In this document: positions 33 through 62,427 of the stretch, piece by piece
Layout: each line of letters begins with the position of its first letter
Numbering within the stretch: position 1 is the first letter of the stretch
NCBI GenBank assembly: GCA_052035175.1
Contig: JBPOHV010000001.1
Location: forward strand, 41,569 to 105,568
DNA from: a candidate division WWE3 bacterium
Lineage (GTDB): Bacteria; Patescibacteriota; WWE3; UBA101185; UBA10185
DNA: 64,000 bases
Reading direction: 5' to 3'
Made by a program: the position numbers and the translations under genes
Notes under the pieces: generated by a model
Databases searched by the model: none
Told to the model about the DNA's origin: nothing
The model's input: only the letters and a program-made list of their open reading frames with translations

Positions 33-1532
33 ATGCGTCTTTCAAATGAAAGTATAAGTAACGATGAACACCAAGTAAGTTTTGATATCGTTGCTGCTGT
101 ATTGTGGGGCAACGTAATGTACATAACTAAATATGGTGAAGGACACGTAGTTTTAATGAGAAATTCAGAGATAAAAGAGTTAGAAACTATTACAGAAGGT
201 GGATTTTCTGTGACATCAGGTATTGTGAAAGATGAAGACGTATTAATCTTGGCAACCAGCTCATTTTTCAATAATTACCCACCCGATAAACTTATGGCTA
301 CACCACTTGGTGAACGCGATTTAAAAGCCGAAGAAGCGTGTATCCTCATGAAACTAAAAGTAAATACAAATTTGTCAGAAGAAGAACAAGTAGACTTTGG
401 TGTAGAAATTAAAAAGAAGCCTGTAATAGTAAGTCAGATAAAAGATCGCCTCAAACGCTTAGTAGAAAAACGAGCTAACCAAAAAGATGTACCTTTAGAA
501 ACAATAGCTTCTAAGGGAGCGGTGCTAAACATGAAGTTAAATCCTTTGAAAACTAAAGCACCAGTAGAATCTATCGGTATCAAGTTAGAGCGTAAGAAAA
601 GATTTAAATTTAAGCCAATTGCTTTTATACCAATAGTTGCTGCTGCTCTAATTGTTTCAGTTGTGTTAACCATAAAAGATTCTCAACAAAAGGTGCTTAA
701 ATCGGCCGAAGTTGAAGGTGTTGTAACGCAAACACAACCAACAGAAGATACACCAGAGATACAGCCTAAAGAAGACATAGACAATGAAGCATTTTATGAC
801 CTTAAAATTGCAGATGCACAAGCAGAACCAAAAGAATTGACAATAAATGACAACAGACTCATTGTCATCGACACAAAAAATGGCACAGTTTATAGCTCTG
901 ATACGCAAACACCAAAATTTGAAAAACTTTCAAAGACATACACCAACATTACATCCATAGAAACCGTAGATGAACTGACTTGGGCAGCAATACAAAATAC
1001 AAACAATACTACCGACTTTGTCTCTTTTGACAATAAAGTGTTAGAAAAAACCTCTTATTCTAGCGACACGTTACTTTCAAAAGCAGCTTATTACCTCGAC
1101 TTTATCTACGCATTAAAAGGAAATAGCATACTTAAATATACGAAAGACGGTACAGCGCTGTCTAGTTCTACATGGGGCACGGCAGCTGACTTTGAAGAGG
1201 CGAAAGACTATGTTGTGGCTTATTCTATATGGTTGATCACCAAGGATAACACCATAGTAAAGTATACTGGCGGGCAAAAAGATACATTTACACTCCAGAA
1301 CAACACAGAGCAACTACAAAATCCAGTAGCTATAGCAACAAAGCTGGATTTCGAGAACATTTATATTGCTGATAAAGCCTTGGGCAAAATATTGGCATTT
1401 GACAAACAGGGTAAGTTTGTACAAGAATACGGCAATAGCAAATGGACAGATATTAATGATATTGCTGTAGATACTGCAGAAAAAACGCTATATATCCTAA
1501 GCGGTAGTCGATTATATAAAATTAGTTTGTGA
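33..1532 (+). CDS. Hypothetical bitopic membrane protein. Cytoplasmic N-domain, one TM helix near residue 205, then an extracellular domain with repeated KYT-DG-like motifs.
   Basis: Complete ORF: stop codons lie upstream and a terminator hairpin follows. The hydrophobic segment FKPIAFIPIVAAALIVSVVLTI is a TM helix. Repeats: ILKYTKDGTALSS, IVKYTGGQKDTFTL. The N-terminus shows a weak PP2C-like GEGH resemblance only. Confidence 0.5.
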   Translation: MRLSNESISNDEHQVSFDIVAAVLWGNVMYITKYGEGHVVLMRNSEIKELETITEGGFSVTSGIVKDEDVLILATSSFFNNYPPDKLMATPLGERDLKAEEACILMKLKVNTNLSEEEQVDFGVEIKKKPVIVSQIKDRLKRLVEKRANQKDVPLETIASKGAVLNMKLNPLKTKAPVESIGIKLERKKRFKFKPIAFIPIVAAALIVSVVLTIKDSQQKVLKSAEVEGVVTQTQPTEDTPEIQPKEDIDNEAFYDLKIADAQAEPKELTINDNRLIVIDTKNGTVYSSDTQTPKFEKLSKTYTNITSIETVDELTWAAIQNTNNTTDFVSFDNKVLEKTSYSSDTLLSKAAYYLDFIYALKGNSILKYTKDGTALSSSTWGTAADFEEAKDYVVAYSIWLITKDNTIVKYTGGQKDTFTLQNNTEQLQNPVAIATKLDFENIYIADKALGKILAFDKQGKFVQEYGNSKWTDINDIAVDTAEKTLYILSGSRLYKISL

Positions 1533-42140: not shown

Positions 42141-42851
42141 TCAAATCACTTCTTTTACAAGGAAGCTAACCAAGGTATCTGCGACTAGTTGATTGGCATG
42201 TTTATTTGGATGAGAATCTATAGGAATCATTGGACAGTATTCACTTTTTAGAAAGCCACGCTCATCTGCTAATGTGTCAAAGAGATCAAATACATGTACG
42301 CTGCTAGATCTTTTCCATGTGGTTGCGAGCCAACTGGCAAATTCTTTTGCACGGTGCGCACATTCTGTAGTAGTTACTTCTTTTCTAAGCGGTGGGGGAG
42401 TAAATGGTATGAATATTTTGTCGTTAAGCTTTTCAAAGGCAATTGCCATTTGTTCATAATGGTTTTTATACCTTCTCAGTTTTTCATCACTTTCTATTTT
42501 TGTGGTTGGAAAACAATTCTTAAACGCTATAATGTCAAACCCTAGTATTTGGTCTAGTGTTGTGCTTGGTGTACAAAAAAGCTTTTCAAAGTCTTTGGGG
42601 TCATTATTACCAAGTTTAATATTGAAATCTTTAAAAAGCATCATGCCTTTATCATTGCTTAGTCCTGTGTGAAATGTAAGTTTATTTGCAATTATATTTA
42701 GTAATAAACGAGGAATATCTTTATATAAATTGTAACCATGATCCCAAAGTTCTATTTGAGTGGTTTGTTGATACAGCTTTTCTCGAAGATTTCCTTGATG
42801 TATTAAATTACCACCGGTTGAATGATGTATGAATAACAATCGTTTTTTCAT
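42141..42851 (-). CDS. SGNH/GDSL-like hydrolase (putative)
   Basis: FIHHSTGGN (block I-like), LGNNDP (block III), DSHPN (block V DxxH). Confidence 0.45.
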   Translation of the reverse strand: MKKRLLFIHHSTGGNLIHQGNLREKLYQQTTQIELWDHGYNLYKDIPRLLLNIIANKLTFHTGLSNDKGMMLFKDFNIKLGNNDPKDFEKLFCTPSTTLDQILGFDIIAFKNCFPTTKIESDEKLRRYKNHYEQMAIAFEKLNDKIFIPFTPPPLRKEVTTTECAHRAKEFASWLATTWKRSSSVHVFDLFDTLADERGFLKSEYCPMIPIDSHPNKHANQLVADTLVSFLVKEVI

Positions 42852-42858
42852 TGATTTC

Positions 42859-43686
42859 TCAAATCTCCATTTCTGCCCAAACTGGATAATGGTCAGATCC
42901 TATTAAATTATGATATACCCCTGATCGTATTATATGTAACCCCTTGTGTAGAATCCAATCAGTTCTTTGTTCTAGCGTGATACCTATATGAGGCAGTTTC
43001 TCTATAGCAGTGTGAAAAGGTATCGCTGGGTTAACAGCATTTCGAATATCAGATGTATGCGTATTTGTATTTCCTACTATGTTAAATGCAGTTCCTACGT
43101 CGTTGGCTATCTTATAAATCTCACCAGTAACCTTTTCATGTTGATATGGCAAAATTCCTATAGTGTTGAAATCGCCTAAAATTATAGTGTGTTTTATATC
43201 TGTGCGTAATTCTTTTTTTAATGCCATAAGTTGCTTATGCTTTTGTGCATATCCCCCAGCTAAATCCAAATGTACAACAGCTACCTGTAAAGTATCATTT
43301 TCTATTTTATGTTCACTCACAATCGCCCCATACAAAGGCATTTGCTTCATAAAATAGCCTTGTATTCTCCACGGGGATTTTTTTAACTGCGGTAATGTTA
43401 GTTTTGCTGTTTTTGTTGTCGTGCAATTTGTTATAGTGCAAATTCCTAGATTATTAACATCAGGTTCTTTATACATATTAAATGTGCAATGAAATCCTTT
43501 GAAGCAAGTTTCGATTTGTTCTACCAATTTACTTGTTTTAGTACTAAGCCTTACTTCTTGCAGAGTTATAAATGAATACCTATATGTTCTTGCAATTGCA
43601 GCAAGCTCCCTTAGTGAAGAGATTACATCAGGCTTAACTCCATATAAGATATTGTATGTACAAATAAAGATAGAATTTTTTAGCAC
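42859..43686 (-). CDS. Endonuclease/exonuclease/phosphatase (EEP) family protein
   Basis: ITLQEV, VVHLD, ILGDFNT, GSDHYPVWAEM. Confidence 0.65.
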   Translation of the reverse strand: MLKNSIFICTYNILYGVKPDVISSLRELAAIARTYRYSFITLQEVRLSTKTSKLVEQIETCFKGFHCTFNMYKEPDVNNLGICTITNCTTTKTAKLTLPQLKKSPWRIQGYFMKQMPLYGAIVSEHKIENDTLQVAVVHLDLAGGYAQKHKQLMALKKELRTDIKHTIILGDFNTIGILPYQHEKVTGEIYKIANDVGTAFNIVGNTNTHTSDIRNAVNPAIPFHTAIEKLPHIGITLEQRTDWILHKGLHIIRSGVYHNLIGSDHYPVWAEMEI

Positions 43687-45959: not shown

Positions 45960-45984
45960 TCAGACCATATTCCGGCGCTGCTTA

Positions 45985-46060
45985 ATTAAGCGTTACTTAA
46001 TTTAAGCGTTACTTATCCGTTATTTTGGTGTCATCATAATACACCCTATAGCATTTATTA
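45985..46060 (+). promoter_or_regulatory. Promoter-like region P1 of the GC-rich island: three CGTTAC/CGTTA direct repeats plus TCATCA-N5-ACCCTATAGCAT
   Basis: The TCATCA...ACCCTATAGCAT motif recurs at 47776-47832. The CGTTAY direct repeats recur at 47776-47832 and 47071-47110. Confidence 0.45.
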
Positions 46061-46157
46061 TTTGTTTATCAATTGCAGACTCTAGTTTGCAGAAAACCAC
46101 TTATCCCAACAGCTGTGACCGCTTTGGTCGCCAAGGCTGTTGGAAAGGAGAAATGCA

Positions 46158-46724
46158 ATGTATCACCATATCCGCGACATCATGCTTTCAGAGAAGAAAT
46201 GGCGTTTCTACCGAGACGCCGGAATGGCATCAGCACTGGTTTTTGTTGTGCTAAGTGTTCTCTGGGCTATCTGGAGTATTGATGCGCAAGACTTGAATCT
46301 TGGTTGGTGGGCCATAGGAGCGTGTGCGCTAACCACACATCTGCTTGGGTCTTTCAATCGAGAATGGGCAAAACGATCGCAAGCATATGAGAAAAACATG
46401 CAAGTTTCGCGCGTGCTCGGTGCAACCGAGCTGCGAAAGCTTGTGGTTTCTGCTCATACAGCATTTTGTGATCGATTGGCTACAACGGAGAAGCAAAACC
46501 CAGTTTCTGAGGCAAATGCTTTATTAGACCTACTTGAGGTCTACATTTGTCTCACCCAAGATGTTTCTTGGGTTGAAAAACTGCAAATGCCAGGGTTGGT
46601 TACTCTCAAAGTGCTGAAAGCGCCTTTGAGTGGTACACCAACAACTGTTGTACTTTCTTGGAAGGTGTTTGCAGCTGGTCTCACCGACCACCCTGCTTAT
46701 ACTTTTCAACGGAGTCTGATATGA
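46158..46724 (+). CDS. Island membrane protein (2 TM plus a C-terminal soluble domain)
   Basis: SD GGAAAGGAG lies 7 nt upstream of the ATG at 46158. GC ~48%. Confidence 0.45.
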   Translation: MYHHIRDIMLSEKKWRFYRDAGMASALVFVVLSVLWAIWSIDAQDLNLGWWAIGACALTTHLLGSFNREWAKRSQAYEKNMQVSRVLGATELRKLVVSAHTAFCDRLATTEKQNPVSEANALLDLLEVYICLTQDVSWVEKLQMPGLVTLKVLKAPLSGTPTTVVLSWKVFAAGLTDHPAYTFQRSLI

Positions 46725-46972
46725 CGCTGAAAGAAAAAGTTCTTCGCCACATAAAGGCAAAGCTTAAACAACTTTGCCTGGGAATTGCAGCGCTAGTCTT
46801 AGCGCTCCTTTTCTGGGTGGTATTTTTCTTAATGCTTGCCTTAGTTATAGGGTCCGATATGGTAGCCATTGCGCTATTCATGTTGACCCTTGTAACTTTC
46901 GGAAGCTTTCCGCTGTTCGCGCTATTAGCGCTAGCAGATAAAATCTATGACGACCTGGAGAAATACTTTTAG
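46721..46972 (+). CDS. Island small membrane protein (2 TM)
   Basis: ATGA overlap with the upstream gene. 83 aa, hydrophobic. Confidence 0.4.
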   Translation: MTLKEKVLRHIKAKLKQLCLGIAALVLALLFWVVFFLMLALVIGSDMVAIALFMLTLVTFGSFPLFALLALADKIYDDLEKYF

Positions 46973-46984
46973 GTCATCTGAAAA

Positions 46985-47059
46985 ACTGTGAGAGAGATCT
47001 CATTGCCCGATTACAGTTTTCTTCGCCTCGGCGGGGATTTACTAAACGGGCAATTTTCA
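46985..47059 (+). repeat. Structured repeat copy R1 (~75 nt) 3' of a gene. Nested hairpins with a pseudoknot-like long-range pairing.
   Basis: ACTGT-[GAGA-GAGA-TCTC]-TTGCCCG-att-ACAGT-[CGCC-TCG-GCGG]-...-CGGGCAA. Homologous to 48588-48660 with compensatory changes. Confidence 0.55.
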
Positions 47060-47070
47060 TTTTTAAAAGT

Positions 47071-47110
47071 ACGTTATTTTTTCGTTATTAAATTAAAATT
47101 CCCAGTGTTA
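47071..47110 (+). promoter_or_regulatory. CGTTAT direct repeats upstream of the third island ORF
   Basis: aCGTTATtttttCGTTATtaaatt...GTTACaattt. Confidence 0.35.
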
Positions 47111-47116
47111 CAATTT

Positions 47117-47773
47117 ATGCATATGAATATAAATGCATTTCCCATACAAGACCCTGTTAACGAAGTCGTAGAAAGAGCTTCTAAAAATCGCTCTGATGTT
47201 TTAACTCTCATGCGAAACAACCCTAGTGCGTATTCTTTTAATCAAGAAGAGTTGCAATATTCTTTAAAAGAACGTATGGGTGGTTCATCCAATTATTCTG
47301 AACATTTAAAAACTCTTGCAGCAGATATGCATGGTTTATTTGAAAAAGAAGATATGCAGAAATATATGTTTGATGCAGTTTTAGACGCTTGGCGTGTGGC
47401 GCTTACTCAGTACCCGCATCTATCTTATCTTGATTTTTGGAAGCAGTTTATGAATGGTGATGGGCGAATTGCCTTATTAAATAAATTTTCAGCTGTTTCT
47501 GAATCTTATGAAAGCGGTAATACACCTTATCTTACAGATTCTAGTTTTTTGTTAGAGCATGACATGAAAGAGAGTCCACTTAGCCATATGAGCCATATGG
47601 GGCGTGTATTGGCAGATTTGTACAATCTTCCTAGCGATGTAGAACCTGGTAGTGTACCAAGTGTTCAAGTTTTGTTAAAAGATATGAAGGTACTTCCTTC
47701 TGATTACAATGCAAAGGCAAAGGAGTTAGGTTTAGTTGCTGGTTTTGGTAAAGCCCAAGTTATAGAGGCATAA
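47117..47773 (+). CDS. Hypothetical soluble protein (host-like GC)
   Basis: ORF beginning MHMNINAFP. No motif recognised. Confidence 0.4.
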   Translation: MHMNINAFPIQDPVNEVVERASKNRSDVLTLMRNNPSAYSFNQEELQYSLKERMGGSSNYSEHLKTLAADMHGLFEKEDMQKYMFDAVLDAWRVALTQYPHLSYLDFWKQFMNGDGRIALLNKFSAVSESYESGNTPYLTDSSFLLEHDMKESPLSHMSHMGRVLADLYNLPSDVEPGSVPSVQVLLKDMKVLPSDYNAKAKELGLVAGFGKAQVIEA

Positions 47774-47775
47774 AA

Positions 47776-47832
47776 CTTAAACGTTATCGTTTCGTTACTT
47801 TTATATCATCACAGCTTACCCTATAGCATATA
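47776..47832 (+). promoter_or_regulatory. Promoter-like region P2 (CGTTAT-CGTTT-CGTTAC repeats plus TCATCA-N6-ACCCTATAGCAT), upstream of the ATG at 47906
   Basis: Shares the motif architecture of 45985-46060. Followed by a CCCC...GGGG 5'-UTR hairpin and an AAGGAG SD. Confidence 0.45.
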
Positions 47833-47905
47833 TATTTATCCTATCAAAACAAACCAACTCCCCGAAAATAAGTAGGGGAAATAATGTTCATTAAAGGAGA
47901 AAAAA

Positions 47906-48253
47906 ATGAACGCCAATCCGTACATTGTTGCACTAAAGCAACTTTTGCAGGCCATTAAGCATCTGATTTCCGTGATGCTGACTTTACCAGGGCTGATGTT
48001 AACCGATAAGGTTGCTGAAGTCATCAATCTTCCTGATAGTCCAGTTACTCACGCAAAGATCCAAATCCTAACAGTCGCATTTAGCAGTGTTGTTTGGTTT
48101 TTGGGATACCGATTGATTGCGTATCTGGGTTTTCTGAAAGAAGATCCTTATCTGCGCGCAGTTGGTACAGTGGTTGGTTATGGGCTTATCGGTACCTTTG
48201 TCGTTTTAACAGTACTTCAATGGTTACAAACTGATGAAACGGTGGAGGAGTAA
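47906..48253 (+). CDS. Island small membrane protein (3 TM)
   Basis: AAAGGAG SD 7 nt upstream. 115 aa. Confidence 0.45.
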   Translation: MNANPYIVALKQLLQAIKHLISVMLTLPGLMLTDKVAEVINLPDSPVTHAKIQILTVAFSSVVWFLGYRLIAYLGFLKEDPYLRAVGTVVGYGLIGTFVVLTVLQWLQTDETVEE

Positions 48254-48256
48254 GCT

Positions 48257-48574
48257 ATGGCATCAATGACTTTTACTCAACAGCAATATGCAGGCGCAAA
48301 AGGGTTTTTGAATCCCACTGCATTCCATAATCTCATGCAGGCTGACGATTCCATGAAGTTGCGCATGCTTAAGCAAATGCTTGATACGCAACTTGCCTAT
48401 GATCTTGTTAGTGTTAGTGACAAGCCGTTGGAGCTCATCGCAACTGAGCAAAATGCGTTTGTCATTTTCAGCATGAGCGCTGATTCCGCAGCCCAATTTT
48501 TTTCATATGCCACTATCAAATTGGTTGGGCAGGATGAAAAGATTGAGGCTTTGCAGAAGAAGCTTACGCGGTAA
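48257..48574 (+). CDS. Island small soluble protein
   Basis: 105 aa. Immediately downstream of the 3-TM protein gene. GC ~45%. Confidence 0.4.
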   Translation: MASMTFTQQQYAGAKGFLNPTAFHNLMQADDSMKLRMLKQMLDTQLAYDLVSVSDKPLELIATEQNAFVIFSMSADSAAQFFSYATIKLVGQDEKIEALQKKLTR

Positions 48575-48587
48575 CAATTTCGATATA

Positions 48588-48660
48588 ACTGTGAGAGAAC
48601 TCTCACTGCCTGACACATACAGTTTCCCCGCTCAGCGGGATTACGAAACAGGCAAATTCA
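48588..48660 (+). repeat. Structured repeat copy R2 (homologous to 46985-47059)
   Basis: ACTGT-[GAGA-GAAC-TCTC]-CTGCCTG-...-ACAGT-[CCCGC-TCA-GCGGG]-...-CAGGCAA. Compensatory changes versus R1: TTGCCCG/CGGGCAA becomes TGCCTG/CAGGCA, and CGCC/GGCG becomes CCCGC/GCGGG. Confidence 0.55.
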
Positions 48661-48667
48661 AATTCAA

Positions 48668-49882
48668 CTAATCTCTATTTTGCTCTGGTACATGTAATGG
48701 CCCCCACAAGCTCACTAAACTTCTACCAATACTATGATGTCGTGCATGTAAATTGTGTTCTTTTATATCTTTTTTATGCTCATCTATAAAACTCGCTATT
48801 AGCTTTGCACGTTCTTTATTACTTTCACTAGATTTCATAAACCATACGCGTCTACCAAATAATAAATCTTTTAAACAAGTATTCCCTACATAAGCTTCTA
48901 ACATTTGTTCAAACGCGTAGTCTTTGTAACTCATTTGAAATTCAGTAATTTCTGGTTCGAGTAATTTAACAGGCTCGCCCTTTAAATAAGCCATCCTAGG
49001 AAATAGGTTTTGGGTTAGAATATCGTCTTCAGACGAATTTCCTAAAGGTAGCTCTATGTCTCTTTCAGTCATAAAGAGGTCCGCTGGTAAAACATTTCCT
49101 TTGTGGTTTGGTGTATCTAGTAAAGGCAATATTAATGCTTCTACGCTGTTTGTTACCATTCCGCGTGCGTTGCGATAGCCACGAGGTCTATCTTTTGTGT
49201 AACCTGCTGTGTCACACACCAACGGTAATCCTTTATCAGATGCCTCTTTATATTTTGTACATAGATTATCGAGAAATTCTTTTAAAGCTTCTGGCGATTC
49301 ATCTACACTTGTATCCAAAGGCGAATATGGTTCTGGTAAATGATGCTTTTCTGGAAAGTTTTTACGAAGTTCTTTGTACTCTTCGTGTGGATTTCTAGCA
49401 TCTAAGTTATGTGTTAAAAATCCCATTTCTCCTAGATAGCCTGTTACTTGTGATTTACCTTGTTCACTCAAACCAACAAGGCCTATTAATAAAGGATGCT
49501 CTTTTTTTATATTATATTTCTTATCTATTTCTTCAAGGTCCAGTCCGTTATTTACTGTTTCATGAAAAACAACTATAAAAGGTAAGTCAGTAAAGTGTAT
49601 TGCTTCGATTAAATTTTTACGTTTTTCTTCTGGGATCCATTCTTTATCCATACCTCTTTCAAACCCTGCTAAAGTTGATGTGTTATCAACAAAAAGTGGT
49701 ACATACATTCTGTTTTCTGGGTCAGACTCATTAAAAAAAGCTGCAATTCCAACGCGTTCCCATTTTGCTGCAGGAACAACCTTCATAGGTGTTTTGGGCT
49801 TTTCGATTTGAGCAGCAACTTGCCATACAGGATCTGGCTTTATATCTTCTAGCGTATCCGTAGGTTGTAATGTAGAAATCAT
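48668..49882 (-). CDS. Multidomain protein with a central P-loop NMP-kinase-like domain (dephospho-CoA-kinase-like)
   Basis: LIGLVGLSEQGKSQVTGYLGEMGF...NLDA resembles the CoaE/NMP-kinase P-loop. Flanked by an unknown ~130-aa N-domain and ~230-aa C-domain. Confidence 0.4.
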   Translation of the reverse strand: MISTLQPTDTLEDIKPDPVWQVAAQIEKPKTPMKVVPAAKWERVGIAAFFNESDPENRMYVPLFVDNTSTLAGFERGMDKEWIPEEKRKNLIEAIHFTDLPFIVVFHETVNNGLDLEEIDKKYNIKKEHPLLIGLVGLSEQGKSQVTGYLGEMGFLTHNLDARNPHEEYKELRKNFPEKHHLPEPYSPLDTSVDESPEALKEFLDNLCTKYKEASDKGLPLVCDTAGYTKDRPRGYRNARGMVTNSVEALILPLLDTPNHKGNVLPADLFMTERDIELPLGNSSEDDILTQNLFPRMAYLKGEPVKLLEPEITEFQMSYKDYAFEQMLEAYVGNTCLKDLLFGRRVWFMKSSESNKERAKLIASFIDEHKKDIKEHNLHARHHSIGRSLVSLWGPLHVPEQNRD

Positions 49883-50856
49883 TTTGTAGCTAATTTATAA
49901 CCAAGTTTACTTACGGCCTTTACAATATGATTTGACAATTTATCGTTGAGACGTGCAATTGCTTGGTTGATTGCTTGATCAGAAAATTTGTCAGCATAAT
50001 TATCGCCCCATTTTAATTGCGCAATATGATCTCGCGTTATTACCGATTGGTCGAGAAGAGTTTTTAATAACTCAGCTTCAAATAAGCTAAGCACAGTTTC
50101 AGAGTCTTTGTTATTTTCTATAAAGCTAAGGTCATCGTTGATTTTGAGATTCATTTGTAAATCAGAAATAAATGTAGTTTCATTTGCGCCAGCTATAAAA
50201 AGCTCGTTCTTTGGGTCAAGTCCTAATTTGATTTGTGTTTGTGTATCTAATTTTGAAACGACTTGTAGACTTGGTAAAAATATTCTGACAAAAGTTTCAT
50301 CAGCAAAAAGCTCTTGGTTAGACTTTTCTGTACTATCTGGAAAATTTGCAAAATATTTTATAAGTCTAGTTACTCCATTTGATCTATCGTGTATTCTTTT
50401 AACTTGATCTTCAGAATAATTAAATTCCCAAGTATGGAGTAAATAATCTGTCTCTTCTAGCGTGCGAACTTTCATATAATAATAATCCCAAATATGTGCA
50501 GAAAGGTCCGACTTTTTATATGTATCTGTTGTAATAACTTGTGGTGCGTCTATTACAAAACAAAAAAAGTTTTTGGGGTCGGTTTTTTTATTTTTTTCAA
50601 ATAGCAATAAAGACGATTCTATAGTTGCGTCGCCATTGTGAAAGTCTATATCTATTATATTTTTGTTTCCAAAAGTATCGTTTTTGTCAACAATATATGT
50701 GAAGTTATGCTTTGAACAAATCTTATTGAGCTCGTGGCCTACGCCTACTCCTGGGACAGATACTATTACCGAATTTAATTTGCGATCAAATGTACTTAAA
50801 ACAAATTTTTCCAAATTCTCATAAACTGTATCGTTCATGCTTGGATTATAAAGCAA
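49879..50856 (-). CDS. Protein with a C-terminal OmpR/PhoB-type winged-helix DNA-binding domain and an unknown N-domain
   Basis: LSLFEAELLKTLLDQSVITRDHIAQLKWGD...AINQAIARLNDKL matches Trans_reg_C. No receiver domain. Confidence 0.45.
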   Translation of the reverse strand: MLYNPSMNDTVYENLEKFVLSTFDRKLNSVIVSVPGVGVGHELNKICSKHNFTYIVDKNDTFGNKNIIDIDFHNGDATIESSLLLFEKNKKTDPKNFFCFVIDAPQVITTDTYKKSDLSAHIWDYYYMKVRTLEETDYLLHTWEFNYSEDQVKRIHDRSNGVTRLIKYFANFPDSTEKSNQELFADETFVRIFLPSLQVVSKLDTQTQIKLGLDPKNELFIAGANETTFISDLQMNLKINDDLSFIENNKDSETVLSLFEAELLKTLLDQSVITRDHIAQLKWGDNYADKFSDQAINQAIARLNDKLSNHIVKAVSKLGYKLATK

Positions 50857-51310
50857 AAGTAGCTTTTTGGCCTAACGTTATATTATTTTTTTCGCAAAAG
50901 CCTGCATTTACTTCCAAAATGTAAAATGCGTCAGTACTTGGTGAATAAATAGTACAGGCAGATTTGAGAGACTCTGTGCAGGGAGGTATATCTTTTTTGA
51001 TATCAACAATTTTAAAATTTTCGTCAATCCAAATGATATCTAACGGAATATATGTATTAAACATCCAGATATGATGTTTATCTGAATATCCCATTGGAAA
51101 TAACATACCTGCATTTTCTGCCAAAGATTTCCTGCCCATAAGCCCATTACTTTGTTTGAATTTGTCATTTGCAACTTCTGCGTTTATTTGTTGATCTCCA
51201 AGCGTGATAGTGGTTGTTTGAAATGGAGCTGTAGATTTAATTTTCCAATAAAATATCATAGCTACAAAGCATAGACCTATAATTAATATGGAAATAACTA
51301 GCTCTCTCAT
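50846..51310 (-). CDS. DUF192-family protein
   Basis: AEVANDKFKQSNGLMGR motif. N-terminal TM. Confidence 0.55.
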   Translation of the reverse strand: MRELVISILIIGLCFVAMIFYWKIKSTAPFQTTTITLGDQQINAEVANDKFKQSNGLMGRKSLAENAGMLFPMGYSDKHHIWMFNTYIPLDIIWIDENFKIVDIKKDIPPCTESLKSACTIYSPSTDAFYILEVNAGFCEKNNITLGQKATFAL

Positions 51311-51642
51311 CTAGAAAGTATGCTCAAAAACGAGCTTACAAGAGAAACGACTATACCAAACAGTAAAGCAGCCAAAAATGTTGCCACAGTAAACCCTGGG
51401 ACAATTTGTCCGACAAACATAATAATTGCCACATTAATAACCAATGCAAAAAGGCCAAAAGATAAGATAGTAATTGGTAACGTTAATAGTAAAAGTAGTG
51501 GTTTTATAAAGGTATTTATTGTTCCAAGTACTATAGCTACAATTACGGCCGTTTGCCAGCTTGCAACTTCGATGCCTGGTACTATTTTTGATGCTAATAC
51601 AATAGAAACTGTGCTTATGACTAGATTGATTAGTAATTTCAT
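51307..51642 (-). CDS. YvlD/holin-family-IV-like small membrane protein
   Basis: 111 aa, 3-4 TM, glycine-rich helices. 4-nt overlap with the downstream gene. Confidence 0.45.
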   Translation of the reverse strand: MKLLINLVISTVSIVLASKIVPGIEVASWQTAVIVAIVLGTINTFIKPLLLLLTLPITILSFGLFALVINVAIIMFVGQIVPGFTVATFLAALLFGIVVSLVSSFLSILSR

Positions 51643-51697
51643 ATTTATAGTTTAACCTTTTTGCCATGATATTACAAAATTATGATATGCTTTTGTC

Positions 51698-52423
51698 GTG
51701 AGTAGTACCCAAATTCCAGACAATCAAATTATCGATAGCGAGCCCAAGATAATTTCTCCACAAACTTTGGGTGGGTATACAGATGCAAACACATTTACAA
51801 AAGTAATACCCAAATCAAATCCTTTTATCTTCACAAAATATCGCGTTTTAATCTTTGTAGCGATTGCAGTAGTTGTGTTTATAGCTTTAGGTGTTAGCGC
51901 TTTTTTTTATGTAAAGAAAAACACGGTTGTTCCGCAGACCGTTGAGCCTACAGAAGAAAAGCATGTTTTTTCTTACAGCGTCGACAAGCCTAATTATTCT
52001 TTTGAGTACATGTACGACAAAGGGTTGTTATTTGAAGGTGACGCTTTTTATTTTTCACCTTTTTTGAAGAATATATACGGCGGTTATTTCAAAGTGTATG
52101 AGCTGGGTAATACAGAAGATTTTGCAAAAATATACGATTTAAATCCGCCAACAATTAATACAGAAGTTGTTGCCCCCTTAACTGCTATTGTTGATGGTGA
52201 GCGTAGTTTTACCCAAGATAAAAGAACTTCTATTGTGTATACAAAGCTTTATGTTTATTCAAATTCTGTAGCCAATATAATATTTGAATTTAGTATAGAA
52301 AAAGACAACAAATATAAAGATGACTATTTAAAATTGTTTGATGTTTCTGCAACATCATTCAGATTTACAAAAGGGTTAGGTGCAGAACCTGTTGTTACTC
52401 AAGAATCTACCCCAAGCCAGTGA
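51698..52423 (+). CDS. Hypothetical single-TM protein
   Basis: TM helix IFVAIAVVVFIALGVSAFFYV. 241 aa. Confidence 0.45.
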   Translation: MSSTQIPDNQIIDSEPKIISPQTLGGYTDANTFTKVIPKSNPFIFTKYRVLIFVAIAVVVFIALGVSAFFYVKKNTVVPQTVEPTEEKHVFSYSVDKPNYSFEYMYDKGLLFEGDAFYFSPFLKNIYGGYFKVYELGNTEDFAKIYDLNPPTINTEVVAPLTAIVDGERSFTQDKRTSIVYTKLYVYSNSVANIIFEFSIEKDNKYKDDYLKLFDVSATSFRFTKGLGAEPVVTQESTPSQ

Positions 52424-52444: not shown

Positions 52445-54397
52445 GTGTCAGACCTTTTGGAAAGTTTAAATTCAGAGCAATCACAAGCAGTTAGCCATTT
52501 GACTGGGCCGGCGCTGGTTGTAGCTGGTCCGGGTAGCGGAAAGACACGTGTATTAACATATCGTATTGCCAACCTTATTCACAATCATCGTGTAAATGAA
52601 AATGAAATATTGTGTGTTACATTTACAAACAAAGCTGCAGCAGAAATAAAAGAACGCGTTCAGAAATTGCTAGATGGAAATAAAATTTTGACATGGAGTG
52701 GAACTTTTCACTCGATTTGTGCACGTATACTGCGTAAAGATGGGTATCATATTGGGATTCCGATTTCTTTTGTGATTTATGATACAGATGATCAGATAGA
52801 TTTAATAAAAGAAATCAGTAAAAACTTTGGTATAGATCCCAAACAAGTAAAGCCATATTCAGCTCTTGCGACTATTTCAAATGCAAAGAGCGAGCTTATT
52901 GCTCCAGAAGCATACGAGCGATACGCTCATGGGTTTTTTCAAAAAACAGTTTCAAAAATATATTTTGAGTATCAACGACTTTTGAAAAAGAATAATGCTT
53001 TGGATTTTGATGACATTTTGGTCGAAACAGTTAACCTCTTTAAACAAGAACCGGCGGTTTTGGACAAGTACACGTCGATGTTTAAGTATATTTTGATAGA
53101 CGAATATCAAGATACAAACAAAGCGCAGTACGTTTTGACAAAGATGCTAGCGTCTCAGCATCAAAACTTATTTGTAGTAGGAGATATGTCACAGGCAATT
53201 TATAGTTTTAGGGGGGCAGATTATCGTAATATCTTAAATTTTCAAAACGACTACCCTGGTGCCGCTGTTTATAACCTGGCTAGAAATTATAGGTCGACAC
53301 AAAATATTTTGGACGCAGCAACGAGTTTGATTACAAATAATGCAACTCATATACCATTAGAATTGTGGACCGATTCGGGGACAGGAGAAAAAGTTACTAT
53401 ATATTGTGGGGGATCAGATACCGAAGAAGCCACATTTGTAATAAGTGAGATTAATAACTTTATTTCTAATGGGAATGATTTTAAAGATATTGCAATTTTA
53501 TATCGAACAAATGCTCAGTCACGAAACATCGAAGAATTTTTAATTCGTTCTAGTATTCCTTATAAAATAATTGGCGGATTGAGATTTTATTCACGTAAAG
53601 AAATAAAAGATGTGATTGCCTTTTTGCGTGTTGTAAAAAATCCAAAAGATTCTGTTTCATGGAAGCGTATTATAAACACTCCGCCCAGAGGTATAGGCCA
53701 AAAAGGGATGCAAGCTTTGGCAGATGCCGATTGGAATTTAGATTTGGTTGAGGCAACTTCAAAATTACCATTCAAAAAGTGGATCAAAGATTGTGAGACT
53801 ATGTCGACGCTAGAATTGATGACAGATATTTTGGAGGTAACAGGATATTTGAAGTGGTTAAATGATGGTAGCGATGACGGAAAAGATAGAATTGAAAATA
53901 TAAACGAACTCAAGTCTGTGTCGGCGCAATTTTTGGATGTAGGTGAGTTTTTGGAAAATGTCGCGTTAATAGAGAGCTCTGAAACACCAAAGTCAAAGAA
54001 AAAGTCTATGACAGAAGATAAAGACGATGTTGTTAGTCTGATGACTGTGCATTCATCAAAAGGTTTGGAATTTGCTTTGGTGTTTGTGATTGGTATGGAA
54101 GAAGGTTTGTTTCCGCATTCACAATCGATGGAAAACACAGATGAGTTGGAAGAAGAGAGAAGACTTTGTTATGTCGCGATTACGCGTGCAAAAAATAAGT
54201 TGATCTTGACTCATGCTAGATCTCGTTTGAGTTATGGCACGTATCAAAATAATATTCCTAGTAGATTTTTGGCTGAATTACCGAAGAATGTAATTATGCA
54301 ACTTGGTACTGGCAGTGCGCATTTTAGGCCAAAGTCTTACAATTTTGACGACGAGTTTTTGGAGGATGAAATTAATCGTAGCAATTTTACTTGGTGA
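52445..54397 (+). CDS. pcrA: ATP-dependent DNA helicase PcrA/UvrD
   Basis: LNSEQSQAV...VVAGPGSGKTRVL, DEYQDTN, VHSSKGLEF. Confidence 0.85.
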   Translation: MSDLLESLNSEQSQAVSHLTGPALVVAGPGSGKTRVLTYRIANLIHNHRVNENEILCVTFTNKAAAEIKERVQKLLDGNKILTWSGTFHSICARILRKDGYHIGIPISFVIYDTDDQIDLIKEISKNFGIDPKQVKPYSALATISNAKSELIAPEAYERYAHGFFQKTVSKIYFEYQRLLKKNNALDFDDILVETVNLFKQEPAVLDKYTSMFKYILIDEYQDTNKAQYVLTKMLASQHQNLFVVGDMSQAIYSFRGADYRNILNFQNDYPGAAVYNLARNYRSTQNILDAATSLITNNATHIPLELWTDSGTGEKVTIYCGGSDTEEATFVISEINNFISNGNDFKDIAILYRTNAQSRNIEEFLIRSSIPYKIIGGLRFYSRKEIKDVIAFLRVVKNPKDSVSWKRIINTPPRGIGQKGMQALADADWNLDLVEATSKLPFKKWIKDCETMSTLELMTDILEVTGYLKWLNDGSDDGKDRIENINELKSVSAQFLDVGEFLENVALIESSETPKSKKKSMTEDKDDVVSLMTVHSSKGLEFALVFVIGMEEGLFPHSQSMENTDELEEERRLCYVAITRAKNKLILTHARSRLSYGTYQNNIPSRFLAELPKNVIMQLGTGSAHFRPKSYNFDDEFLEDEINRSNFTW

Positions 54398-54399
54398 TC

Positions 54400-54475
54400 A
54401 TGCGCAGCAAAGGCTTTCTCGCTCGGGCGGCTGCATATCATCCTTCGCTGCGAGAGCTCTTTGCTGTGCAATATC
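54400..54475 (+). other. GC-rich ~75-nt extended hairpin between pcrA and ksgA. Candidate terminator/attenuator or small structured RNA.
   Basis: GCGCAGCAAAG...CTTTGCTGTGC outer stem with an inner TCTCGC/GCGAGA helix. GC ~58% within a ~33% GC context. No U-tail follows. Confidence 0.35.
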
Positions 54476-57523: not shown

Positions 57524-58080
57524 TGCGCAATCAAATAATACTTGTAGTTTTTTTGTTATTACTTTTTTATTTTTCTATCGGCCAGATTCATTTACTTTTA
57601 TTCCTAATAGTTTTTGGAATCGTATTTTCAATTATCTTTTTTTCACATTTTGTTTTTGGTGGTGCACCTTTTGTGCGTACACCAACCAGTCATATCTCGA
57701 GTATGATTTCATTGTCGAACCCCTCTAGCGAAACCTGCATGATAGATTTGGGGTCTGGTATGGGAGATATACTTTTTGAATTTTCAAAAGTGTGCGACAT
57801 CGCACACGGTTTAGAAATAAACCCTTTATTATTTGTTTTATCTAAGTTGCGCTTATCCCAAACTTCAGCCAAAGTTTATCGCAAAAATATTTGGAAGTTT
57901 GATGTATCTAGATATGACATAGTTACTTTGTATGGGATTCCGAATATGATGCAGCAACTTGAGTACAAACTTTTAAACGAACTTAAACCAGGCGCACGCG
58001 TAGTTTCAAATAAATTTCCTTTTCCAAACTGGAAGCATGTTCGAGTTGAAAATGATGTTTACCTTTATACTAAGGGCTAG
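57496..58080 (+). CDS. Class I SAM-dependent methyltransferase with an N-terminal TM
   Basis: DLGSGMGDILF motif I. Overlaps the femAB-like gene 3' end. Confidence 0.55.
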   Translation: MANFESHALMRNQIILVVFLLLLFYFSIGQIHLLLFLIVFGIVFSIIFFSHFVFGGAPFVRTPTSHISSMISLSNPSSETCMIDLGSGMGDILFEFSKVCDIAHGLEINPLLFVLSKLRLSQTSAKVYRKNIWKFDVSRYDIVTLYGIPNMMQQLEYKLLNELKPGARVVSNKFPFPNWKHVRVENDVYLYTKG

Positions 58081-58131
58081 GCCCAGAGATCACATAACTA
58101 TACAAGCTTCGTTTAATAAAGGGCCTAGCCC
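58074..58131. terminator. Bidirectional hairpin between convergent genes (GGGCTAGGCCC ... GGGCCTAGCCC inverted repeat)
   Basis: 11-bp GC-rich arms with a ~36-nt loop. Lies between the stop codons at 58080 (+) and 58140 (-). Confidence 0.4.
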
Positions 58132-58139
58132 TATGGCAA

Positions 58140-60971
58140 CTATCCCTTATATGCAAAAGGGCAAATGTCTTTGAAGTCACACCATTTGCAGTGCATACCC
58201 GGGTGAGCTTCGAAAACTCCAGACTTGATTTTATCTATAGTTTCTTTTACCTCTTGTTTTTTTTCATCGATGTCTTTTTGAGTGCGTGTTGTAGAAAGCT
58301 TTTCATTACTTTCAACAAAATAGTAAGTAAGTTTTTTTGGCGTGTATCCCAAAGCCTCCTTTGCTGCTAATGCATAAAAAGTGACTTGCGCATCTTTGTC
58401 GATCTCTTTTTGTGTTTTGGTTTGACCGGTTTTATAATCGATAATTTCGACACCATCCTCTAGTTGGTCTATACGGTCTATTTTGCCCAAAAACTTTATT
58501 CCATCAATCCAGACATTAAAGCTTTTTTCCAACGCCAAATGTTTTGGGTGTTCATTTTTATTTTGTTCATAATATCTTTCCAATAGTTTTTTACCTTCTT
58601 CAAATCTCAATTGTCTGTGTTTATCGTCAAAATATCCCAGAGGTTCCCACTTTGTTTTATAAATATCAAAAAGTTCTTCTAACGAAACATCTTTTGCCAT
58701 CTTTTTCATGTGAAAATCTTGTAATGTCGCATGTATGGTGTTTCCAAAACTAAACACATGGTTTGGTGCTACAGGTATGTTAAGAACGTACTTATATTTA
58801 TATTGCAGCCCGCATGTTTCATATGTATCTATTTGTGAATAGCTTAAGAATGGTGGAGAAAACTTTATTACACCTTTTCTGAAGTCAGTATCATGACCAA
58901 ATAGGCCTTGCTCAGATGTTGCTCCAGCAACGTATAACTCTGTTTTTAAGTGAGTTTCATCAAGATATCCTGTAGGAGTTGTTTCTTTTTTTCCTCCGTA
59001 GTCTTTGGAGTATGTTAAATACAATACATTCTTTGCACGCGTCATACCAACATAAAATAATCTACGTTCTTCTTGTATATGCTCATTGCCTGTAGGAAGA
59101 GATTCTTTTATAAGTTCATCTGGGATCTCAATTTGATCACCTTTATTTTTTGTGGGAAATCTACCTTGTACGAGATTTACCATAAATACAACTGGGTATT
59201 CCAACCCTTTGGCAGCGTGCACTGTAAGTAAATTTATTGTGTCTATATCTTCAATTTGTGCTTGTGCAGGGTTTTCACCAGCTTCAACAATAAGATCTAA
59301 ATAATCAACTAATTCGATTATGTTTGGCGCTACACCATTTTCACCGTGATAATCATTTTCAAATTGTTTGACGCGCTGTGCAAATAAATCTAGATTTTTT
59401 ATGCATAAGTGTGATTCAACACTTTCATTTTCCAAAAATTGTTGTAAATAATTTATATTGTTTACGAGAAAGAATAAAAATTCTACAGGCGCACTTTTGT
59501 GCAATTGCTCTTGAAGTATTGTAATCTTTTCGACAAATTGTTTGATGGTTTCGTCTTCTGATGCTTTTATAACTTCCCATAAGAAAGTTTTTTTAAATTT
59601 TGCTTGCGCAATATGTTTGCCTACCAAATCGTACGGGATCTCTAAACTTTGTATTGTAAGTACTCGGTAAAGATTAACTCCATCAAAAGGATTGATGAGT
59701 ATTTTTAAAAATGCTATCAGATCTTTGATTTCATCACGATCGTACAAGCCTCTATTTCCTACAAGTTGATACGGTAATCCAGCTTGTCGTAAACCTAGAA
59801 CAAAAGGTTCTAAATGATTATTCGCTCTAGCCAAAATAGCAATATCTTTAAAGTTTATTTCTGGGTTTGAGGAGATAACACTTTTTATCTCGTTTACTAC
59901 AAATTCAACCTCATCTGTTAGTGATTGAGCTTCTACTATCTTTGATTCTTTTGAGTTATCTAAATCTTCATTGGCTTGTATGAGTTTCTTGGATATCCCA
60001 AGTTTTACTTCTAATGTGTCAGGATTATTATTTTGTATTACATTATATGAACTGTCTAAAATAGTTTGAAGAGATCGATAATTTTCTGTGAGTGTTGTCA
60101 TTTTTGCTTTTGGGTAGTCTTTCATAAATTCTAAAATGTTCGAAACAGCAGCCCCTCTAAATTTATATATTGATTGCGAGTCGTCTCCTACTACTACAAG
60201 TGATCTCTTACTATTGTCATCTTTGGTGTACAACATTTTGATCAAAATATATTGTGCATAGTTTGTGTCTTGAAACTCATCTACCAAAATATGTTCAAAT
60301 TGCTTTTTATATTTTTCCAAGATATGTGGACGTGTTTCAAATAGTTTAATTGTCCAAGAAATGAGATCTCCAAAGTCCATATAATTATTTTTAATTTTTA
60401 ATTCTGAATAAGCTTTGTATATATAGGCTAATTCGTGCCAGCGCTGTTTTTCTTCAACATCGTCGACAGAATGTTCAGCGTATGTGCTGATTTCTTTTTC
60501 TGTAATACATTCGTCTTGTAAGCGTGAAACAAATTTTATAATTGCAGAAATAAATTTTGTCGGATTACCAAGTGGTCTAAAGTATTTCAAATCTAGGTCA
60601 AAAATATTTTTGCGCAAAAGTAACCATTGTTCTGGTGAACTTATTATTTTATAAGAAGTATCAAGCCCAATTTCCAAAGCTTCGTTGCGCAGTATTCTGT
60701 CTGCAAATGAGTGAAATGTGTAGACCCATGGTTCTTCGTATCCCAGTGGCATGATATCTCCTATACGTTGTGTCATTTCTGCTGATGCTTTTTCTGTAAA
60801 TGTAAGCGCCAATATATTTTGTGATCCTACTTTTTGTTTTTGTATAAGGTGGCTTATACGTTCTGTGATAACGCGAGTTTTCCCAGTACCTGCACCAGCT
60901 ACTACAAGTAGTGGCCCTGATTTATGTTGAATCGCTGACTTTTGATTTGCGTTTAGGTTAAGTTTATCCAC
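58140..60971 (-). CDS. UvrD-family helicase fused to a C-terminal PD-(D/E)xK Cas4/AddB-like nuclease with a 4-Cys cluster
   Basis: VVAGAGTGKTRVI, DEFQDTN, HAAKGLEYP. The C-terminus has IIDYKTG plus ETCG...CKWCDFKDICP (C-x2-C-x5-C plus an upstream C). Confidence 0.8.
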   Translation of the reverse strand: MDKLNLNANQKSAIQHKSGPLLVVAGAGTGKTRVITERISHLIQKQKVGSQNILALTFTEKASAEMTQRIGDIMPLGYEEPWVYTFHSFADRILRNEALEIGLDTSYKIISSPEQWLLLRKNIFDLDLKYFRPLGNPTKFISAIIKFVSRLQDECITEKEISTYAEHSVDDVEEKQRWHELAYIYKAYSELKIKNNYMDFGDLISWTIKLFETRPHILEKYKKQFEHILVDEFQDTNYAQYILIKMLYTKDDNSKRSLVVVGDDSQSIYKFRGAAVSNILEFMKDYPKAKMTTLTENYRSLQTILDSSYNVIQNNNPDTLEVKLGISKKLIQANEDLDNSKESKIVEAQSLTDEVEFVVNEIKSVISSNPEINFKDIAILARANNHLEPFVLGLRQAGLPYQLVGNRGLYDRDEIKDLIAFLKILINPFDGVNLYRVLTIQSLEIPYDLVGKHIAQAKFKKTFLWEVIKASEDETIKQFVEKITILQEQLHKSAPVEFLFFLVNNINYLQQFLENESVESHLCIKNLDLFAQRVKQFENDYHGENGVAPNIIELVDYLDLIVEAGENPAQAQIEDIDTINLLTVHAAKGLEYPVVFMVNLVQGRFPTKNKGDQIEIPDELIKESLPTGNEHIQEERRLFYVGMTRAKNVLYLTYSKDYGGKKETTPTGYLDETHLKTELYVAGATSEQGLFGHDTDFRKGVIKFSPPFLSYSQIDTYETCGLQYKYKYVLNIPVAPNHVFSFGNTIHATLQDFHMKKMAKDVSLEELFDIYKTKWEPLGYFDDKHRQLRFEEGKKLLERYYEQNKNEHPKHLALEKSFNVWIDGIKFLGKIDRIDQLEDGVEIIDYKTGQTKTQKEIDKDAQVTFYALAAKEALGYTPKKLTYYFVESNEKLSTTRTQKDIDEKKQEVKETIDKIKSGVFEAHPGMHCKWCDFKDICPFAYKG

Positions 60972-62239: not shown

Positions 62240-62311
62240 GGGCCCGAATCTGGTGGTTGATATTGCCTTAAGAACCAGGGTTTGTGGGTTCGATTCCCAT
62301 CGGGTCCACCA
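62240..62311 (+). tRNA. tRNA-like element with a canonical T-arm (GTGGG-TTCGATT-CCCAT), 7-bp acceptor (GGGCCCG/CGGGTCC) and encoded CCA. The D/anticodon region is non-canonical (37 nt).
   Basis: GGTTCGATTCC-CATCGGGTCC-A-CCA 3' end. The 5' GGGCCCG pairs with the 3' CGGGTCC. Only 37 nt lie between the acceptor and the T-stem, and no standard anticodon arm can be folded. Confidence 0.4.
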
Positions 62312-62395
62312 TGATAATATAGTTTGACATACAACAATCAACATTGTATAGTCTATATACTTAAGGCAAGGGAATTCCACTAGAATAACCCTGGT

Positions 62396-62427
62396 ACAAA
62401 AAAAGATCTCGAAAGAGGTCTTTTTTG
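62396..62427. terminator. Bidirectional rho-independent terminator (AGATCTC-gaaa-GAGGTCT flanked by A-run and T-run)
   Basis: caaaaaaAGATCTCgaaaGAGGTCTtttttt. Confidence 0.6.

Follow-up and report, generated by a model that had tools for sequence, protein, structure and literature searches.

The 64-kb stretch analysed here (the window), which belongs to a candidate division WWE3 bacterium, carries a group of genes in two converging arms between a D-Ala-D-Ala carboxypeptidase gene and a DUF192 gene: the open reading frames (ORFs) ORF1-5 on the plus strand, and p404 and p325 on the minus strand. Three transcription units within ORF1-5 are headed by direct repeats of the hexamer CGTTAY, and two of them end in copies of an element of about 80 nt. 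In the WWE3 relative L002 the carboxypeptidase and DUF192 genes are convergent and only 29 bp apart, and the indel that splits them in the window was therefore delimited as 45960-50845 (4.9 kb) rather than as 45960-48670, the stretch flagged in a preliminary description of this DNA. Judged by gene order, 45960-50845 is a lineage-specific accessory locus of which the flagged stretch represents half. The GAPDH encoded in the window shares 63% identity with its counterpart in a complete WWE3 genome (Candidate Phyla Radiation, CPR, or Patescibacteria), and the local gene order is common to both. To our knowledge, hardly any transcriptional regulation has been characterised in CPR/Patescibacteria, whose genomes are tiny.

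ORF1 (46158-46724) encodes an orphan protein of 188 amino acids (aa) with a hydrophobic segment at its N-terminus and shares an ATGA overlap with ORF2 (46721-46972), which encodes a largely hydrophobic protein of 83 aa that forms a singleton cluster. ORF3 (47117-47773) encodes a soluble protein of 218 aa if translated from the ATG at 47117 and has no visible Shine-Dalgarno sequence; NCBI annotates 216 aa from 47123, and one gene caller preferred a GTG at 46988 (261 aa). The product of ORF4 (47906-48253; 115 aa, with hydrophobic segments) is likewise a singleton cluster, and that of ORF5 (48257-48574) is a soluble protein of 105 aa (102 aa according to NCBI). Hydrophobic segments were present in the products of ORF1, ORF2 and ORF4 and in neither of the other two, and the proteins of the ORF1-2 cassette show no relation to those of the ORF4-5 cassette. 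Most of the sizes in the preliminary description (83, 115, 105 and 218 aa, the last being 216-218 depending on the start) agree with ours, the first protein having 188 instead of 189 aa, and the perfect AAGGAG Shine-Dalgarno sequences reported for two units were located upstream of ORF1 (46145-46150, plus strand) and ORF4 (47894-47899, plus strand).

The rise in GC (guanine plus cytosine) content that had drawn attention to 45960-48670 is real. It had been put at ~46% for an undivided island, but is restricted to two patches at 46140-47060 (45.5%) and 47906-48665 (43.4%), and the 845 bp between them (47061-47905) are host-like at 34.6%, so that the whole interval reaches 41.1% in a window with an average of 35.8%. 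At third codon positions (GC3) the values for ORF1 (0.41), ORF2 (0.50), ORF4 (0.41) and ORF5 (0.48) correspond to z = 4.0-6.8 relative to 53 other genes (mean 0.267±0.034, maximum 0.33). ORF3 (0.26), p404 and p325 exhibited host-like GC3.

The proteins of ORF1-5 are on record only in one NCBI contig (925 kb) and in one Logan contig with 100% identity to the window. The part of the genome available for reading was the 64-kb window, and the scans of sequence collections described below demand exact words. The homologue search with ORF1 returned the protein itself only, ORF3 and ORF5 had no relatives among viral contigs, and the PDB sequence search with ORF1, ORF3 and ORF5 was without match. NCBIfam, PHROGs, PADLOC and Pfam contained nothing meaningful for ORF1-5 and p404, and the earlier suggestion of a toxin/immunity or bacteriocin function found no supporting family in these four resources. 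The genes surrounding the locus are of the housekeeping type (UvrD-type helicases, KsgA, FemAB-like, RmuC, PGK and GAPDH, as assigned by Pfam), and Pfam detected no integrase, transposase, recombinase or phage gene among ORF1-5, p404, p325 and the 10-12 flanking genes. Flanking target duplications and terminal inverted repeats were not found at the locus, and blastn of the 2.7-kb stretch against phages and plasmids yielded no match.

A contig of another assembly (GCA_020049755.1, contig JAHZTO010207944.1) is 90% identical in nucleotide sequence to 49855-52374 of the window and stops 27 nt into p404, at the p325/p404 junction where the orphan part of the locus starts. This may reflect strain variability or merely a fragmented assembly.

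Hexamer repeats upstream of three units

Exact copies of CGTTAY-N5-CGTTAY were found three times in the 64 kb (at 46007, 47072 and 47782), all on the plus strand and upstream of ORF1, ORF3 and ORF4, respectively, just as the preliminary description had stated for its three units. Their placement is non-random: even with up to one mismatch allowed, 0.8 matches are expected in 64 kb, the combination of the repeat with the box TATAGNAT occurs three times compared to 0.01 in shuffled sequences, and the looser pattern NGTYAY-N5-NGTYAY added only one further match in the window, which lacks the box.

Closer examination of the individual promoters showed that the repeats upstream of ORF1 (45991-46034, plus strand) consist of CGTTAC at 45991 and 46007, CGTTAT at 46018 and a degenerate TGTCAT at 46029, the last three of which (46007, 46018 and 46029) hold an 11-bp phase. 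An exact ACCCTATAGCAT box follows at 46043-46054, and its conserved core TATAGCAT (46047-46054) begins 29 nt past the start of the middle in-phase hexamer at 46018. Similarly, ORF4 is preceded by CGTTAT at 47782, CGTTAC at 47793 and a degenerate TATCAT at 47804 in 11-bp phase (47782-47809, plus strand), with an exact ACCCTATAGCAT at 47818-47829 and TATAGCAT at 47822-47829, and the regions upstream of ORF1 and ORF4 can be aligned over ~75 nt. A shared box beginning with TCATCA had been proposed for these two units. Its ACCCTATAGCAT part is indeed exact at both, while TCATCA is accounted for by the third, degenerate in-phase hexamer (TGTCAT or TATCAT). The repeats upstream of ORF3 (47072-47099, plus strand) comprise CGTTAT at 47072 and 47083 and a weak third hexamer, TAAAAT, at 47094, and are followed by TACAAT at 47109-47114 without a TATAGSAT box. 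From its sequence, the TATAGCAT box is best regarded as -10-like. A promoter for a T7-like single-subunit RNA polymerase was considered for ACCCTATAGCAT and rejected, because the two resemble each other only superficially, no polymerase of this type is present, and homologues of the regulator described below are accompanied by the box in the form TATAGGAT.

The regulator p325, its partner p404 and related loci

The minus-strand gene p325 (49879-50856) encodes a protein of 325 aa that combines an AAA+/Cdc6-like N-terminal domain with a C-terminal winged helix of the OmpR/PhoB type. Its C-terminus matched Trans_reg_C (PF00486) in Pfam with 30.4 bits, above the cutoff of 26.2, as part of a family in which four of the five members match this domain, and the family profile identified the DNA-binding domains of YycF/WalR/VicR, ArlR and ToxR in the PDB. 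In the AlphaFold 2 model (pLDDT 73) the C-terminal domain resembled the DNA-binding domains of SaeR, YycF, AdeR and VicR (TM score 0.65-0.70, probability 1.00), and the N-terminal ~230 residues resembled AAA+ modules (Cdc6/ORC, RuvB and RFC). The Walker A motif is degenerate (PGxGxxH), one homologue matches ATPase_2, and the recognition-helix region SDQAINQAIxRLNxKL is kept across the family. Pfam gave no match to a receiver domain (Response_reg) in p325, and, lacking this domain, p325 does not qualify as the response regulator of a two-component system. Members of its family are rare: among 5.8 billion sequences the only ones recovered were P0005, P0006, the protein of locus L203 and one from another assembly that is 95% identical.

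The adjacent gene p404 (48668-49882, minus strand) encodes a P-loop NTPase-like protein of 404 aa with the motifs VGxSxxGKS, NLDAR and D(T/S)xG(Y/F). A single weak relative was detected in 1.84 billion representatives, encoded directly downstream of the p325 homologue in L203. Comparison of the p404 family with PDB sequences matched the Walker A region alone, and the AlphaFold 2 model (pLDDT 33) was too poor for use.

The pairing of the regulator with a p404-like gene was also observed in three further loci (L203, L204 and L205). The p325-type regulators of the four loci are only 32% identical and the other neighbouring genes are unrelated. In L203-L205, direct repeats of a hexamer with an 11-bp phase lie upstream of the adjacent gene, and in L203 also upstream of a convergent operon, in each case on the strand of the gene concerned. 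These repeats (TGTTAT-N5-TGTTAT, TGTCAT-N5-TGTTAT, TGTCAC-N5-TGTCAT and TGTCAT-N5-AGTCAT) are accompanied by a weaker third in-phase hexamer, and each of the three loci has a pair of the type YGTYAY-N5-YGTYAY. The adjacent genes have a TATAGGAT box 32-33 nt past the start of the middle hexamer, compared to 29 nt to TATAGCAT in the window, and upstream of the L203 operon TATAGATT was read 29 nt after the second hexamer, where the TATAGNAT pattern gave no match.

The gene directly downstream of the divergent promoter in L203-L205 encodes hydrophobic segments and has a GC3 of 0.37-0.51, compared to 0.17-0.31 for the regulators; these repeat-promoter target genes (L203 2388-3404, L204 667-1038 and L205 105-623) lie above both regulator and neighbours in this respect. 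Since raised target GC3 recurs in four different organisms, a single transfer event does not explain it. Each of the target genes in the three loci has a large hairpin at its end, and these hairpins (z -4.2 to -6.5) are unrelated. In L204 a palindrome, TATAGCAT-N12-ATGCTATA, is located upstream of the regulator gene (1255-1295, plus strand), placing the box on both strands; it may serve autoregulation or a bidirectional promoter.

The recurrence of this promoter layout beside regulator homologues in three other loci makes p325 the likely, sequence-predicted binder of the hexamer repeats. A small-membrane-protein module under a CGTTAY-binding regulator was among the earlier suggestions, and this one has gained ground: its candidate regulator is encoded next door, outside the stretch then under consideration.

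The closest parallel is provided by the operators of WalR/VicR (YycF) and of other OmpR/PhoB-family regulators, including the pho boxes, which share with the locus hexamer direct repeats spaced by N5 and located upstream of or over the -35 region. The WalR/VicR box has the consensus TGTWAH-N5-TGTWAH, and footprinted sites include TGTTAT-N5-TGTTAT (PMC4168254). The half-sites at our loci read CGTTAY, TGTTAT and TGTCAY, the first base being C and not T in the window. The likeness extends to the regulator, whose OmpR/PhoB-type winged helix matches YycF, VicR and SaeR in sequence and fold. Unlike WalR/VicR, p325 lacks a receiver domain as well as a partner histidine kinase and has an AAA+/Cdc6-like N-terminus and a P-loop partner of unknown family, and its presumed targets carry three in-phase hexamers followed by the conserved TATAGSAT box.

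The element following ORF2 and ORF5

Copy A of the element (46984-47063, plus strand) begins 11 nt after the ORF2 stop codon, and copy B (48587-48666, plus strand) begins 12 nt after the ORF5 stop codon and abuts the stop of the convergent p404. The two copies had been noticed before as ~75-nt elements 14-18 nt beyond the stops; both are there, with these slightly different dimensions. In a hand-corrected structural alignment, used here in place of that from MAFFT, which misaligns the middle, the copies are 75% identical (77 ungapped columns, 19 of them differing), and they share without mismatch a core of 19 nt that is unique to them within the window.

On the plus strand the element folds into a hairpin, P1 (GUGAGA/UCUCAY closed by a tetraloop), followed by a 6-bp helix, P2 (UGCCYG/CRGGCA), around a GC hairpin, P3. 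The helices are located at 46988-46993/46998-47003 (P1, GAGA loop), 47004-47009/47047-47052 (P2) and 47021-47026/47031-47036 (P3) in copy A and at 48591-48596/48601-48606 (P1, GAAC loop), 48607-48612/48649-48654 (P2) and 48627-48631/48635-48639 (P3) in copy B, with P2 enclosing 37 and 36 nt, respectively. Compared to shuffled sequences the fold z was -3.45 and -3.70 on the plus strand and -2.4 and -2.15 on the minus strand.

This structure is conserved between the two copies. Five substitutions fall into the 34 paired columns (17 ungapped pairs) and none of them breaks a pair, the changes being one true compensatory C-G→U-A in P2 and three G·U→G-C. Random substitution would leave the pairs unbroken with P≈4e-4, or 0.002 conditional on five stem changes, and by our rough estimate the realistic support for conserved structure is nearer P~0.01. 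Three compensatory changes had been proposed before, among which only TGCCCG/CGGGCA versus TGCCTG/CAGGCA survived; GAGA versus GAAC is loop variation, and CGCC/GGCG versus CCCGC/GCGGG resolves into two U·G→C-G changes plus indels. In DNA, or in a transcript of the opposite strand, the three G·U pairs of copy A would be replaced by A·C mismatches. This favours an RNA transcribed from the plus strand, and on the same account a function of the element on the minus strand was rejected.

The pseudoknot-type helix of the preliminary description (AACUGUG/UACAGUU; 46984-46990 with 47012-47018 in copy A and 48587-48593 with 48618-48624 in copy B, plus strand) is the longest helix common to both copies and crosses P2. 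Its arms occur in both, as claimed, but they are invariant, overlap P1 by 3 nt and form a duplex of -4.4 to -6.2 kcal/mol only, and for these reasons the pseudoknot is possible but unsupported.

Rfam had no match at the gathering threshold in the whole window, and relaxing the limit to E≤10 brought up nothing that overlaps either of the copies. The 5' half, used as an exact pattern, had 0 matches in genome, metagenome and viral contig collections; among the at least 120 matches listed for the 3' half in the metagenome scan, all were chance matches and none had P2, AACTGT or ACAGTT in place. When the structural alignment made by hand was used for an nhmmer search of the window and 206 loci, the two copies were the only matches. 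Hammerhead, HDV-like, twister and pistol ribozymes were rejected, their core motifs being absent and the strand order different.

Like intrinsic terminators and 3' stem-loops, the element stands directly after the last stop of its operon and has a helix that is GC-rich and formed by the mRNA strand; P2 of copy A, moreover, is followed by a U-rich tract, the UUUUCAUUUUU tail, with the repeats of the ORF3 promoter following 9 nt behind. It differs from them in being branched (two hairpins plus a 6-bp long-range helix), in the missing U tract of copy B and in the ~75% conservation between copies that flank unrelated genes. When the 60 gene 3' flanks of the window are ordered by fold z-score, those of the two cassettes take the 2nd and 4th places, and the other top flanks (after 52445-54397 and 58140-60971) form GC-rich long-range stems with 30-40 nt inside and without U tracts. 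The element is most likely a transcription terminator and/or 3' stabiliser of the cassettes, rather than a new RNA class or a recombination site. Since it is not an ordinary hairpin-plus-U terminator, the label of terminator is only partly earned. A structured 3'-UTR (untranslated region) RNA, as suggested earlier, is retained only in a modest form carried by the fold z and the unbroken pairs, with no Rfam ribozyme or riboswitch and no homologue in any collection searched.

The 3' ends of a UvrD-like and an AddA-like helicase gene (54395-54475, plus strand, and 58045-58135, minus strand) carry GC-rich inverted repeats of 12-14 bp, and long inverted repeats that enclose 30-40 nt and lack U tracts may be how transcripts commonly end in this genome.

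Proposed regulon and competing explanations

We propose that the locus consists of a regulator arm on the minus strand, with p325 followed by its P-loop partner p404, and a convergent target arm on the plus strand, with three units headed by CGTTAY-N5-CGTTAY-N5-T(G/A)TCAT, two of which have the TATAGCAT box thereafter. Regulator p325 would bind the repeats head-to-tail and activate or gate the three promoters. The ORF1-2 and ORF4-5 units, both rich in GC3, are orphan cassettes that encode small membrane and soluble proteins and have the 5' promoter module and the ~80-nt 3' module in common, and the element would be found in both because the two modules together form a shared chassis. The 3' module may insulate the first unit from the ORF3 promoter and the third from the convergent p404. 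For this model as a whole, that is p325-controlled repeat promoters and cassettes with a terminator/stabiliser module at the 3' end, we estimate a probability of roughly 0.55.

Under this model the locus would be a compact and directly testable regulon with an operator/promoter grammar common to four loci, governed by a rare regulator family in which an AAA+-like domain is fused to an OmpR-type winged helix and which is always encoded beside a P-loop partner. The orphan membrane-protein targets with their deviant codon composition could plausibly act at the surface of an episymbiont or in its interaction with a host, and the shared 3' RNA module hints at what transcript ends look like in these organisms. 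The proposed mechanism is conventional and overturns no known principle. A bolder version, in which an undescribed pseudoknotted RNA module (self-cleaving or exonuclease-blocking) and the repeat promoter make up exchangeable cassettes, and a CPR-specific AAA+/winged-helix regulator deploys horizontally circulating GC-rich orphan membrane proteins, appears decidedly improbable to us.

Several points weigh against the proposed model. We infer the binding of the repeats by p325, the direction of regulation and the terminator/stabiliser activity of the element from sequence, and the repeats also fit a general WalR-type box, which could be recognised by another OmpR-family regulator encoded elsewhere in the genome of 925 kb. 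The model does not account for the raised GC3 of the cargo genes. As to the element, the tail of copy B (AAUUCAAAUUC) is not U-rich and a simple terminator scan called neither copy. The support for its structure is weak because there are only two copies; all five stem changes are transitions, and the two sequences used to assess the structure are those from which it had been deduced. In addition, the 5' half looks coding-like: when read as GTG-MRE(I/L)SLPD(T)YSF, it has five synonymous substitutions out of six, and its 3-nt indel keeps the reading frame.

The regulatory half of the model could be replaced by one in which a two-component system encoded at another site acts on the repeats as on ordinary WalR/OmpR-family response-regulator boxes, with p325 and p404 as unrelated neighbours. 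The hexamer-N5-hexamer layout and its sequences, TGTTAT-N5-TGTTAT of L203 in particular, do fit the WalR/VicR consensus. We nevertheless consider this unlikely in view of the co-occurrence of the layout with p325 homologues in four independent loci and the confinement of the exact repeat to these promoters within the window, where the one additional match to the looser form is boxless. A different kind of objection arises from the coding-like signature, by which the 5' half of the element is or recently was translated, either as a small ORF starting at GTG or as the true N-terminus of ORF3, copy B being a truncated remnant. In that case part of the conservation seen between the nucleotide sequences would reflect the protein. 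Twelve aligned codons differ by GAG/GAA, ATC/CTC, TTG/CTG, CCC/CCT, GAT/GAC and TTT/TTC, which amounts to five synonymous changes and a conservative one plus an in-frame ACA insertion, and the frame of copy A is open into ORF3, as used by the gene caller that gives 261 aa. Neither GTG, however, has a Shine-Dalgarno sequence, as do ORF1, ORF2, ORF4 and ORF5, a 1-nt indel breaks the frame in the 3' half where the nucleotides are conserved, and an extended ORF3 would span the CGTTAT-N5-CGTTAT promoter repeats, with NCBI annotating 216 aa. The RNA fold accounts for all these substitutions, and the compensating G→A is not within the stretch that would be translated. Translation of the element thus seems doubtful, and we favour the reading as a 3' RNA module.

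That module might in turn be a new functional RNA, such as a pseudoknotted self-cleaving ribozyme in the 3'-UTR, an exonuclease-blocking knot or a riboregulator. The AACUGUG/UACAGUU helix would form an H-type pseudoknot with P2 and was retained despite the adjacent 3-nt indel, single-stranded stretches such as ACNAAAC are conserved, copy B lacks a U tail, and the fold z of -3.5/-3.7 is low. The pseudoknot arms, on the other hand, show neither covariation nor independence from P1 and pair weakly; Rfam was silent at E≤10; the genome, metagenome, viral, phage and plasmid collections and the 206 loci contained no further copy; and similar long-range stems lie at the ends of unrelated genes in this window. 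We regard a new RNA class as improbable on these grounds. Least convincing is the idea that the promoter and 3' modules mark recombination or mobility boundaries of exchangeable cassettes, attC-like or other, to which we give very little credence. It is true that unrelated cargo of foreign composition is enclosed by conserved 5' and 3' flanks, that L002 has no such locus between the flanking genes, and that the 90%-identical contig ends exactly at the p325/p404 junction. No recombinase-type domain (integrase, transposase or recombinase) is encoded in the island or its neighbour genes, however, no attC core sites, target duplications or terminal inverted repeats are present, the G·U-dependent pairing points to RNA from one strand and not to folded DNA, and no related cassettes were found elsewhere.

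The attC-like cassette array of the preliminary description fails in particular. The locus resembles integron cassettes in having small genes that are unrelated to one another, with a related element of ~80 nt, an imperfect palindrome, behind each. The core sites of attC are R'' (RYYYAAC) and R' (GTTRRRY), and integron cassettes are generally promoterless and expressed from Pc. In the window the 5' ends of the elements read GAAAAAC and ATATAAC rather than RYYYAAC, and GTTRRRY is lacking at the 3' side, where the nearest candidate, GTTATTT, is part of the next promoter repeat. The locus further differs in having no integrase, in cassettes with their own repeat plus TATAGCAT promoter, and in G·U pairing at the RNA level. 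Phage morons resemble the cassettes in their short cargo, own promoter, own 3' structure and deviant composition, but here phage context and PHROG or phage-genome matches are missing and the promoters would depend on a chromosomal regulator module. Quorum-regulated bacteriocin loci of the blp/com type likewise comprise several small membrane-protein operons with a common direct-repeat promoter and a local regulator. Their regulator is of the LytTR type in place of the OmpR-type winged helix seen here, and the locus contains no leader peptides, peptidase-containing exporters or recognisable bacteriocin/immunity family.

Three further features were observed in the surroundings of the locus. Between GAPDH and PGK, two genes (42141-43686, minus strand) encoding an endonuclease/exonuclease/phosphatase-family protein and a protein of 236 aa are missing at that position in L002 and represent a second small indel close to the island. 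Just outside the island, beside the DUF192 gene, 51307-51642 (minus strand) encodes a protein of 111 aa with four transmembrane segments that matches PF04020 (Phage_holin_4_2, E 8e-29); as it is kept in the 90%-identical contig, it was assigned to the core genome. Finally, a 72-nt tRNA-like domain resembling both ends of tmRNA is located at 62240-62311 (plus strand), with the acceptor GGGCCCG/CGGGUCC including G3·U70, the T-arm GUGGG-UUCGAUU-CCCAU and an encoded CCA. Only ~25 nt take the place of the ~300-nt mRNA-like part; the Rfam tmRNA model scored 20.1 bits (gathering threshold 47; E 2.5e-6) and ARAGORN made no call. Upstream, at 62163, stands ACTCTATAGCAT, one mismatch from the cassette box, and a canonical hairpin with a T-tract follows downstream at ~62395-62425.

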